Assembly: GCF_003334815.1 (NCBI RefSeq) | Contig: NZ_QOWO01000087.1 | Reading direction: 5' to 3' (one strand) | DNA length: 2,241 nt | DNA from: Escherichia coli | Lineage (GTDB): Bacteria > Pseudomonadota > Gammaproteobacteria > Enterobacterales > Enterobacteriaceae | Notes under the pieces: generated by a model | What the model was told of the DNA's origin: nothing | Databases searched by the model: none | The model's input: the letters and a program-made list of their open reading frames with translations, nothing else | Position numbers and translations under genes: made by a program | Part shown: in pieces, positions 198-2,241 of the stretch | How the letters are laid out: the number at the start of each line of letters is the position of its first letter | How positions within the stretch are numbered: position 1 is the stretch's first letter

Positions 198-216
198 GCC
201 CCACACATGGTGGGGC
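198..216. other. Intercistronic hairpin (7-bp stem 198-204/210-216, 5-nt loop) between the ssb stop and the downstream ORF start
   Basis: GCCCCAC-acatg-GTGGGGC is perfectly self-complementary by direct base pairing. On the minus-strand RNA it is not followed by a U-tract, so it is not a canonical intrinsic terminator. Confidence 0.6.
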
Positions 217-1134: not shown

Positions 1135-1150
1135 CAGGGAGCGCAGGTCA

Positions 1151-1185
1151 CGGCGCGACAGGGGCGGCGCGACCGGAACGGTCGC
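1151..1185. repeat. Direct repeat CGGCGCGAC x2 (1151-1159, 1165-1173); the second copy overlaps a hairpin GCGACC-ggaac-GGTCGC (1169-1185)
   Basis: Exact 9-bp direct repeat with 5-bp spacer, read directly. The hairpin has a 6-bp perfect stem. Confidence 0.6.
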
Positions 1186-1358
1186 TGCAAGCCGGGTTTT
1201 CACGCATCGGACCGTAGCGGCAGCCCGAAACCGCGCCAGCGGGTTCGGCGGAGACTGGCGGGTGCGCCAGCAGCTGCCTGTCGGAGTCGGGCCTGACGAC
1301 CGGATGCCGCCAGGCAGCCGGGAGCCGAAGTGGGCGCAATAAAAGACAGCCAGAAACG

Positions 1359-1371
1359 GTGACAGTGTCAC
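1359..1371. repeat. 13-bp palindrome GTGACA-g-TGTCAC; candidate operator for a dimeric DNA-binding protein
   Basis: Six-bp arms are perfectly complementary around a central G. It lies in the only AT-richer patch (about 1331-1410) of the intergenic region. The operator role is inference. Confidence 0.45.
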
Positions 1372-1373
1372 GG

Positions 1374-1382
1374 AATATCACA
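1374..1382 (-). promoter_or_regulatory. Possible extended -10 element (TGtGATATT on the minus strand) for conventional transcription toward ssb
   Basis: Minus strand reads TG-t-GATATT. The hexamer keeps the A at -11 and T at -7 but has G at -12, and there is no good -35. A start site about 7 nt downstream would fall inside the 1359-1371 palindrome. Weak, by-eye call. Confidence 0.2.
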
Positions 1383-1434
1383 CCTGTTCCCTGCATACAG
1401 CCATACACTACCTTCTGACCGGAAAGCCGGGCCG

Positions 1435-1453
1435 GCAGCGCCGCAGGCGCTGC
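1435..1453. other. Hairpin with 8-bp GC stem and 3-nt loop (GCAGCGCC-gca-GGCGCTGC)
   Basis: Perfect pairing 1435-1442/1446-1453. Confidence 0.6.
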
Positions 1454-1466
1454 ACCCCGCATTTCC

Positions 1467-1533: not shown

Positions 1534-1725
1534 TCACCTGTTTCTGCTGCCCTGAAGGATGTAGTGACCGCCGAGGAATACAGCCTGCTGATTCGCCACA
1601 AAATCGCAGATTTCATCAACAATCTGCGCAGTGGTGAGCGGTTTCTGCCCCATTTCACGACGCCGCGCATTAATCACGGCTTTGTAATTGCGCAGAATTT
1701 CGCGGGTTTCTGTGCTGATATTCAT
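1534..1725 (-). CDS. Small hypothetical protein (63 aa, mildly basic), translationally coupled to the upstream 140-aa ORF
   Basis: The ATG (complement of 1723-1725) overlaps the upstream stop TGA (complement of 1722-1724) in an ATGA arrangement. GGGGAG lies 8 nt upstream of the ATG. Composition is ordinary. It may belong to a small leading-region protein family (DUF905-like is a recollection of typical plasmid annotations, unverified). The competing track ORF 1368-1670 is GC-artefact-like. Confidence 0.6.
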   Translation of the reverse strand: MNISTETREILRNYKAVINARRREMGQKPLTTAQIVDEICDFVANQQAVFLGGHYILQGSRNR

Positions 1726-2144
1726 GACATGTGCTCCCCGTCCAGCGCCTGTAACACAACGTCCATTGCTTCGCGTTCTTCCCTGACGAATGCGTCACCG
1801 TCGCCCCCGTTCTCGCTCCCGACGGCATACAGGCGCTTCATTTCACTGCCTGCCAGCGCCATCACTTTTTCCAGCATCACCGCCGGAACTGTCACCTGAC
1901 GGCTGGCGCGCTTTTCTTCCATCAGCTCACGAACAACGTCGTGAACAATGCTGACATCCGCACCATGCTCAAAGGCATCGTCCAGTCGCTGCATGACGGT
2001 TTCCAGCTCATCGTCTGTCAGACTCCAGTCCTGGGCTATGTGACGCACATCCCCACGGGTCAGCACCACGGCAAAAACGCATTCACTGTCCGGCACGTCT
2101 GTGTTCAGCACTTCGCGGATAATTTCTTTAACAGTACAGTACAT
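1722..2144 (-). CDS. Hypothetical strongly acidic protein (140 aa; about 30 Asp+Glu vs 14 Lys+Arg by my count), leading-region gene of unknown function
   Basis: Long clean ORF with AAGGAG (complement of 2153-2158) 8 nt upstream of the ATG at 2144. Same orientation as ssb. Family not recognised with certainty (DUF1380-like is a recollection, unverified). Confidence 0.75.
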   Translation of the reverse strand: MYCTVKEIIREVLNTDVPDSECVFAVVLTRGDVRHIAQDWSLTDDELETVMQRLDDAFEHGADVSIVHDVVRELMEEKRASRQVTVPAVMLEKVMALAGSEMKRLYAVGSENGGDGDAFVREEREAMDVVLQALDGEHMS

Positions 2145-2152
2145 GTTCTCGT

Positions 2153-2158
2153 CTCCTT
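2153..2158 (-). promoter_or_regulatory. Shine-Dalgarno sequence (AAGGAG) of the 140-aa ORF
   Basis: Minus strand reads AAGGAGACGAGAAC-ATG, an 8-nt spacer. Confidence 0.8.
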
Positions 2159-2162
2159 TACA

Positions 2163-2181
2163 GGGGCGGCATTGCCGCCCC
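2163..2181. other. Intercistronic GC hairpin (8-bp stem GGGGCGGC / GCCGCCCC, 3-nt loop) just upstream of the 140-aa ORF ribosome-binding site
   Basis: Perfect pairing 2163-2170/2174-2181. On the minus-strand RNA it is followed by UGUAAAGGAG, not a U-tract. Confidence 0.6.
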
Positions 2182-2190
2182 GTCCGTTAA

Positions 2191-2241
2191 TCAGTCCAGT
2201 GCCGCGTAAATCGCGTTGCATTCGGGGTGAAATTCGATGTG
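2191..2241 (-). CDS. Possible 3' end of an upstream minus-strand gene (fragment only)
   Basis: One minus-strand frame is open from the window edge to a TGA at 2191-2193 (...HIEFHPECNAIYAALD*). A second frame is open to a TAA at 2188-2190 and the third frame is also open, so the true frame cannot be decided from about 50 nt. Supported only by the downstream hairpin and the operon-like context. Confidence 0.25.
   Translation of the reverse strand, partial: HIEFHPECNAIYAALD

Follow-up and report, generated by a model that had tools for sequence, protein, structure and literature searches.

A conserved stem-loop between klcA and a DUF1380 gene in the leading region of enterobacterial plasmids, a candidate mRNA stabiliser or processing boundary

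Introduction

What does a stable G/C hairpin do in the few nucleotides between two plasmid genes, directly upstream of a strong ribosome-binding site? The question is raised by one end of a stretch of 2,241 nucleotides from Escherichia coli (hereafter the window, meaning the whole stretch that was analysed), where such a hairpin follows klcA. Few pieces of plasmid DNA are as widespread in the Enterobacteriaceae as the one that contains it, and the antirestriction gene next to it is switched on within minutes after a plasmid has entered the cell. An earlier reading of the letters (the sequence-only reading) had left several options for it: a determinant of RNA processing or stability, a site of pausing, or a single-stranded DNA structure of the transferred strand.

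Stable stem-loops of G/C pairs hinder the exonucleases PNPase and RNase II, and stem-loops between cistrons stabilise upstream parts of the message in operons such as malEFG, pap and puf; known examples are the REP hairpins of the malE-malF spacer and the hairpins of papB-papA and of the puf operon. We consider here how far the hairpin after klcA resembles these elements, and what else it might be.

Results

The spacer between klcA and the DUF1380 gene

The window matches the IncI-gamma/K1 plasmid NZ_CP024481.1 at 100% identity; the klcA product is annotated there as a 141-aa 'antirestriction protein', and PF03230 was found on KlcA homologues. This KlcA/ArdB/YubI-type antirestriction gene runs off the window, which holds its 3' end (2191..2241, minus strand); the end reads GCA CTG GAC TGA on the minus strand, with the TGA at 2193-2191, and its translation ends ...HIEFHPECNAIYAALD*. 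What had been put down as a possible upstream gene end is real, being the 3' end of the 141-aa PF03230 gene, and the interval singled out earlier (2145-2190) is precisely the 46-nt intergenic spacer between the two ORFs.

All elements of the spacer read on the minus strand. The stop codon is followed by 9 nt, UUAACGGAC (2182..2190), which are invariant in nine aligned relatives, and then by the 19-nt hairpin (2163..2181), composed of the 5' arm GGGGCGGC (2181-2174), the loop AAU (2173-2171) and the 3' arm GCCGCCCC (2170-2163). The four nucleotides UGUA (2162-2159) separate the stem from the Shine-Dalgarno sequence AAGGAG (2158-2153) of the DUF1380 gene, and a further spacer, ACGAGAAC (2152-2145), leads to the ATG (2144-2142) of its 140-aa ORF, 18 nt from the hairpin. 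The stem as first described, 8 bp of G/C pairs only with a 3-nt loop and 4 nt before AAGGAG, is exact by coordinates; in a repeat search the element also reads as 9-nt arms around 1 nt.

The hairpin is predicted to be very stable, both as RNA (-18.4 kcal/mol, z -3.9, with 0 of 200 dinucleotide shuffles as stable) and as DNA (-11.4 kcal/mol, z -4.4, again 0 of 200 shuffles). The fold of the first 45 nt past the klcA stop beats 496 of 500 dinucleotide shuffles, and in a 341-nt mRNA context the pair probability of the stem is 0.86-1.0.

The DUF1380 ORF begins in a pentanucleotide repeat, ATG TAC TGT ACT G, with about 2.4 copies of TGTAC (2131-2144, minus strand). An allele with two extra units (+10 nt) is present on nine contigs (L014 1578-1600, also L015 and L016); it is frameshifted from the canonical Shine-Dalgarno sequence and ATG, with a stop after 8 codons, and gene callers give for it a 168-aa ORF that starts within klcA and runs through the hairpin. 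Variation of the TGTAC repeat could amount to slipped-strand on/off switching.

Position in the plasmid leading region

The relevant genes of the 26-kb neighbourhood all lie on the window minus strand and point towards nikA/oriT, in the order DNA methylase, DUF1380b, hypothetical gene, klcA, the hairpin, DUF1380, 63-aa ORF and a long GC-rich non-coding stretch, followed by ssb, DUF905, a ParB-like gene, psiB, psiA and ardA. The window is leading region, the first DNA into the recipient, and its plus strand is both the transferred (T-)strand and the template. An ssDNA promoter has been mapped 5' of klcA and the next one, of the ssi/Frpo class, before ssb (PMC12672017), which places the hairpin inside the klcA operon, between its cistrons 1 and 2. 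The second cistron is the DUF1380 gene (YubJ/YcjA-like, PF07128, 140 aa; 1722..2144, minus strand) and the third is the 63-aa ORF (1534..1725, minus strand), which overlaps the DUF1380 stop. In its setting the hairpin is what an intercistronic stabiliser calls for, a stable stem-loop in an untranslated spacer within one operon.

Cistrons 2 and 3 meet differently from cistrons 1 and 2: in ATGA (1722-1725, minus strand) the DUF1380 stop codon shares letters with the start codon of the 63-aa ORF, as against the structured 46-nt spacer upstream, and this overlap suggests translational coupling of the two. The F homologue of klcA is named yfgB and is 93% identical to ArdB of R64 (bioRxiv 10.64898/2026.01.09.698686); the spacer of the F plasmid is identical to that of the window.

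Large inverted repeats, such as 940-959/968-987, lie in the long GC-rich non-coding stretch of the window (about 770-1530), and the motif CTGCGCCATCAGGCGCAG occurs three times in the 26-kb locus (L001 1293-1310, 4158-4177 and 13093-13110), a number in keeping with the description of three ssDNA promoters of the ssi/Frpo class for IncI1 plasmids. An annotated 104-aa 'hypothetical protein' (1148-1462, minus strand) lies wholly within the GC-rich stretch and is probably not a gene.

Conservation among close relatives

The 65 nt around the hairpin returned 4816 records and are present in 3522 of 5426 complete E. coli genomes (~65%); 75% of the copies match exactly and 24% differ at one or two positions, and the 65 nt of the EHEC plasmid pO157 are among the exact matches. 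The places are on plasmids in 4854 of 4913 cases, with a median of 1 per genome. A REP or BIME element was rejected on this plasmid-borne distribution and on copy number, each of the 20 fetched loci with the hairpin having it once.

Nine relatives that are 88-99% identical over klcA-DUF1380 show variable columns at 66 of 426 positions in klcA and at 114 of 433 in DUF1380 (alignment gaps included). The 46-nt spacer between them has a single substitution, at the first loop base (AAU/GAU), and one 10-nt deletion; the stem does not vary. Such an invariant stem shows constraint, of a type that invariance itself leaves unsettled.

The 10-nt deletion is that of two E. albertii copies (L017/L018, 1493-1503) and takes out the DUF1380 Shine-Dalgarno sequence GGAGACGAGA; the hairpin, with a GAU loop, is intact there and stands 6 nt upstream of the remaining ...AAAACATG.

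More distant material had to come from elsewhere than the nucleotide and DUF1380 searches. PLSDB blastn, in near and distant modes, was saturated by more than 5000 matches at 90% identity or above, which made it of no use for covariation. The best 120 matches of a DUF1380 protein search were all at least 81% identical, and a contig search with the DUF1380 alignment gave nine loci, seven of them close copies and two with the paralogue. Copies of the region also turned up in assemblies labelled Streptomyces morookaense, Acinetobacter idrijaensis and Pseudomonas yangonensis and in Oscillospiraceae, Oscillibacter and Collinsella MAGs; these copies (L002, L005-L010) are 89-99% identical over DUF1380a, with L009 and L010 carrying DUF1380b, and most likely reflect contamination or mis-binning.

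The hairpin belongs to the 3' end of klcA

Natural rearrangements show to which gene the hairpin is attached. Where DUF1380 is deleted (L012), the hairpin is kept after klcA and is followed by the Shine-Dalgarno sequence of the 63-aa ORF; where a truncated methylase gene replaces klcA (L011), the hairpin is lost and the DUF1380 Shine-Dalgarno sequence is kept. The hairpin is also kept where the next gene is ArdA (L038) or another ORF (L036) and where there is none (L026, L034). The paralogue DUF1380b has almost the same Shine-Dalgarno sequence (AAGGAGACGAGA) and no hairpin before the gene. Since the hairpin stays without DUF1380 and goes without klcA, we regard it as part of the klcA 3' end.

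The ribosome-binding regions of DUF1380b (28% protein identity) and DUF1380a read GAAGGAGACGAGAATG and AAGGAGACGAGAACATG, respectively, the DUF1380b sites being at L009 2470-2510, L010 1010-1050 and L001 16284-16297; the duplication of DUF1380 seems to have taken the ribosome-binding site along but not the hairpin.

KlcA family representatives were drawn from a library of 1.84 billion proteins and their contigs compared. In every natural divergent KlcA lineage examined (38-74% identity) a hairpin begins 0-10 nt after the klcA stop. At 74% identity (L036) it is CGGGGCGGU-UAC-ACCGCCCCG, with another ORF downstream; at 63% (L026) it is GGGCGGC-AUG-GCCGCCC followed by UUUCUUU, a real terminator shape with no downstream cistron; at 59% (L027) it is GCGGGCGGC-GUU-GCCGCCUGC, with the Shine-Dalgarno sequence 40 nt off; and at 56% (L038) it is CGGGGCGC-CUG-GCGCCCCG, with ArdA as the next gene. 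The 46% lineage (L028) has ACGGGGCGGC-UCUG-GCCGCCCCGU before DUF1380, the 41% lineage (L029) has GAUCCUGACA-UG-UCAGGAUC, which overlaps the klcA stop codon, the 40% lineage (L034) has AUGGCGGG-GAAA-CCCGCCAU with no downstream cistron, and the 38% lineages (L031-33) have GGCCCCC-GUGA/GCGA-GGGGGCC. Those at 38-41% identity are non-alignable and carry different hairpins in the same place.

When seven lineages (the window, L026, L027, L028, L029, L031 and L034) were each tested against their own shuffles, six gave empirical p values of 0.002-0.03 and L031 gave 0.07. Down to 46% protein identity the core GGCGGC/GCCGCC keeps its sequence; this exceeds what structure alone would need and counts against a stabiliser. 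In one further entry, the 66%-identity cluster representative P0185 (L037, Logan SRR15242565), the sequence is the canonical one except that T stands in place of every C. Because this pattern indicates bisulfite-converted reads, it was left out, and it appears to be an artefact of a bisulfite-converted assembly.

Termination and pausing

Of the two sequence features of an intrinsic terminator, the hairpin has the G/C-rich stem-loop (8 G/C pairs, a 3-nt loop, -18.4 kcal/mol) and lacks the U run directly after the stem, for which some 4-5 U or more in 8 nt are expected: the nucleotides past the stem are UGUAAAGG, with 2 U in 8 nt, and the plus-strand flank after the stem, GTCCGTTA, has no T run. 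The missing U-tract of the sequence-only reading accordingly holds on either strand. A promoter and terminator scan called no terminator at the hairpin and found no promoter-like site in the window.

The nearest described element is in the IncU plasmid RA3, where the klcA-orf04 spacer contains a GC-rich palindrome without a T run; inserted ahead of xylE, behind the promoter, it left expression in E. coli unreduced, in contrast to three true terminators (PMC7414963). The earlier expectation that the hairpin is unlikely to terminate efficiently is supported by the lack of a U-tract, by its position within the operon (PMC12672017) and by this analogue without a drop in expression (PMC7414963). 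Judged by its sequence and by analogy with RA3, the hairpin is not a canonical terminator.

A milder effect on transcription has to be weighed. The nascent hairpin might act as a pause site or weak attenuator that slows or partly releases RNA polymerase after klcA, and so set the ratio of klcA to downstream transcript, or it might act differently on an ssDNA template. The terminator-like shape argues for this, as do the nearly identical stem with UUUCUUU at the operon end in L026 (63% KlcA), the UUU after the L038 stem and the proposal by the RA3 authors of pausing at the klcA palindrome (PMC7414963). Since the L026 element looks like a true terminator, a transcriptional role is real in some contexts, and the stem has probably arisen from a terminator stem or also serves as one. 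For the window, however, the 2 U in 8 nt, the absent terminator call, the undiminished reporter activity of the RA3 analogue (PMC7414963) and the conserved downstream cistrons that follow 4 nt off behind a strong Shine-Dalgarno sequence make pausing or attenuation unlikely as the main function.

Other classes of element were considered and rejected. An ssDNA promoter (Frpo/ssi) does not agree with a 19-nt hairpin without promoter hexamers, the published elements being upstream of klcA and ssb. An attC-like site was suggested by TTAAC/GTTAAC beside the stem; its core sites misfit RYYYAAC/GTTRRRY and the element is far too short. Rfam 15 gave no match at gathering score in the 26 kb and none at the hairpin up to E = 10 in the window. 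In the literature searched we found no account of the hairpin for IncF/IncI plasmids; papers on yfgB, yubI, yubJ or DUF1380 were unrelated and the RA3 palindrome came nearest.

The downstream ribosome-binding site

The position of the hairpin 2-6 nt 5' of a Shine-Dalgarno sequence could also matter for translation: it might insulate the ribosome-binding site, or bring the klcA stop nearer to the Shine-Dalgarno sequence and tune re-initiation or coupling. The closer KlcA clade keeps the 2-6 nt whether the next gene is DUF1380, orf63 (L012), ArdA (L038) or another ORF (L036), and the same arrangement recurs at ssb>DUF905, ParB>psiB and DUF1380b>hypothetical gene. In folding models the unpaired fraction of the stretch from the Shine-Dalgarno sequence to AUG is 0.68 with the hairpin intact and falls to 0.56 when its 19 nt are shuffled, with 1 of 60 shuffles reaching wild type. 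Deletion of the 19 nt, in contrast, gives equal or better accessibility (0.74), from which it follows that the hairpin is not needed to open the ribosome-binding site; on this modelling it is compatible with an open one. The spacing fails in L027 (Shine-Dalgarno sequence 40 nt off) and L029 (about 20 nt), L026 and L034 have no downstream cistron at all, DUF1380b has the same Shine-Dalgarno sequence without a hairpin, and the E. albertii copies without a Shine-Dalgarno sequence still have the hairpin. We rate a translational role below pausing, as a doubtful one.

Pairing and strand

Because the stem is invariant in thousands of close relatives, covariation rests on six rows only. These six homologous hairpins were cut and centred on their predicted loops, with the register set by hand; a MAFFT alignment of klcA 3' flanks was not used in the counts since its 3' arm is out of register where loop lengths differ. 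The sequence-only reading had named conserved pairing in homologues as a check; in the six hairpins 97.9% of cells are paired, which 0 of 500 shuffles reach, four of eight pairs have changes on both sides (5 of 500 shuffles), and the covariation score is 0.392 as against 0.150 (0 of 500 shuffles). Slid registers leave 46-67% paired. Compensatory changes are seen in L036, where the loop-closing C-G becomes U-A, and in L027, where an outer G-C becomes C-G; the two 'flips' of L038 are equally readable as one pair lost. By this comparison the pairing is maintained by selection.

The few imperfect pairs and the loops indicate on which strand. L027 has a G.U pair on the sense strand, and so do the sister hairpins upstream of the methylase gene, upstream of ardA and, in F, after ssb; the pair in the methylase-upstream hairpin is G-C in F, G.U in the window's plasmid and A-U in two IncI1-type leading regions. 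On the T-strand these G.U pairs become A.C mismatches. The GNRA tetraloops GAAA, GUGA and GCGA are likewise found on the sense strand only, and the sense fold is at least as stable as the antisense fold in 10 of 11 cases. With G.U pairs and GNRA loops confined to the sense strand, the mRNA is a better candidate than the T-strand, and pairing kept in evolution on the RNA strand, as a stabiliser would show, is what is found in these few rows with their hand-set register. Of the options first listed, the RNA ones are thereby favoured and the structure of the transferred strand is disfavoured.

A DNA hairpin on the T-strand (the window plus strand) would serve as a local barrier or landmark for SSB, for priming or for complementary-strand synthesis in the recipient. 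The plus strand is indeed the T-strand, its DNA fold reaches -11.4 kcal/mol, and large stem-loops (ssDNA promoters) stall complementary-strand synthesis in F (bioRxiv 10.64898/2026.01.09.698686). Beyond the wobbles, which in homologues and sisters are all sense G.U, and the sense-strand bias of loops and folds, two points make this a poor candidate: known functional ssDNA structures are far larger, the threshold of a published screen lying below -75 kcal/mol, and the position of the hairpin follows the stop codon, an mRNA feature.

That the hairpin has no present function, as the relic of a terminator stem or as a palindromic site for a protein that binds duplex DNA, is hardly credible: it is a perfect 19-bp palindrome and its core sequence is kept down to 46% protein identity, but the flanking genes vary far more than the spacer, whose sole substitution is in the loop, pairing survives double changes, the L027 DNA palindrome is imperfect, with its G.U, no promoter is nearby in the promoter scan, and unrelated palindromes stand at the same position in distant lineages, for which reason a dsDNA operator was rejected.

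Sister hairpins in the leading region

The klcA hairpin has counterparts at other junctions. Between ssb and DUF905 the window contains GCCCCAC-CAUGU-GUGGGGC (198..216, minus strand), without a U-tract, at a distance of 20 nt from the stop codon of ssb upstream and of 6 nt from the DUF905 GGAG downstream. The corresponding hairpin in F and IncI1 plasmids is GCCCCG(U/C)-...-GCGGGGC with diverged flanks, and differs by one compensatory pair (A-U/G-C) and one U.G pair. The same layout of stop codon, U-tract-less G/C hairpin and Shine-Dalgarno sequence is present at DUF905>ParB-like, ParB-like>psiB and DUF1380b>hypothetical gene; the gap from hairpin to Shine-Dalgarno sequence is 2-6 nt at three of the four sister junctions and some 20-35 nt at DUF905>ParB-like. 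Between IncI and F plasmids the stems of the sisters hold and the loops vary, with one compensatory pair in each of two sister hairpins, a non-significant number in these 3-4 sequences (111 of 500 and 327 of 500 shuffles).

The psiB-proximal hairpin, CCGCCCCG-CCGGAGA-CGGGGCGG (L001 7305-7327), contains the 7-mers of the klcA hairpin with the arms swapped, and does not differ between the five plasmids that were compared, two of them IncF and three with IncI-type leading regions.

We compared short co-directional spacers by their composition-corrected fold z. In the window's plasmid the leading-region spacers have a median z of -3.0 (n=8), as against -0.2 elsewhere (n=13; Mann-Whitney p = 0.0013), and in F they have -2.3 (n=6), as against +0.37 for tra operon spacers (n=8; p = 0.002). 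As the leading regions are homologous, the two plasmids amount to one observation against two control backgrounds and are not independent.

Discussion

The reading that we prefer, and hold at even confidence, is that the hairpin is an intercistronic mRNA stem-loop of the klcA(ardB)-DUF1380-orf63 message that acts as an exonuclease block or a processing boundary, an activity that we infer by analogy. The 8-bp G/C stem would bar 3'-to-5' exonucleases (PNPase, RNase II) that set out from endonucleolytic cuts or premature 3' ends, and the antirestriction (klcA) segment would in this way be protected. The hairpin fills the spacer and would leave single-stranded only 9 nt on its 5' side, which should be in reach of the terminating ribosome, and 4 nt on its 3' side, in reach of the initiating 30S; with both stretches within ribosome reach, little naked RNA would be offered to RNase E or Rho. 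As a likely outcome, segments of a transcript that is made only in a short burst, from the single-stranded DNA after transfer, would live longer or differ in stability.

A wider proposal is more speculative and, in our view, probably does not hold: the klcA hairpin could be one of an unrecognised class of U-tract-less G/C hairpins that stand at almost every junction of the leading region transcribed from ssDNA, are absent from the tra junctions tested in the same plasmids and might be an adaptation to zygotic induction. Such a class might prolong messages made in a burst of a few minutes; alternatively, the hairpins might help the nascent RNA to fold off its single-stranded template and so favour translation. 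The enrichment of junction hairpins, which rests on two plasmids, is the only part of the analysis that might be of specialist interest.

If the hairpin and its sisters do set the lifetime or relative dosage of early messages, they would be part of how resistance plasmids establish themselves in new hosts. If they do not, annotators still learn that this hairpin is no terminator, that klcA, DUF1380 and orf63 are one unit, and that short hairpins of the leading region are to be kept apart from ssDNA promoters.

Four known systems help to place the hairpin. The RA3 palindrome is the same kind of element in the same place, with klcA upstream, although homology of the two hairpins is not established and the RA3 klcA belongs to a stability module under ordinary promoters. 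An intrinsic terminator shares the 8-bp G/C stem and short loop, here 9 nt past a stop codon, and the 63% KlcA lineage (L026) bears nearly the same stem with a U-tract; the klcA hairpin differs in having no U-tract, a Shine-Dalgarno sequence 4 nt on and conserved co-transcribed genes downstream. The ssDNA promoters form hairpins in the same region, and the window itself holds one at about 770-1530, but they are long, imperfect hairpins that rebuild -35 and -10 boxes on the T-strand, whereas the klcA hairpin reads in sense RNA.

The closest likeness is to the hairpins of malE-malF, pap and puf: a stable G/C stem-loop in the spacer of one operon, with no termination signal and with conserved pairing, situated directly after the cistron whose product is presumably in greatest demand. 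In contrast to the malE-malF elements, the klcA hairpin is not a REP sequence, is not repeated and is nearly always plasmid-borne, and the klcA operon differs from all three in being transcribed from single-stranded DNA early after conjugation. By this analogy the hairpin is probably ordinary in kind, akin to the known intercistronic mRNA stem-loops and with a putative function like theirs.
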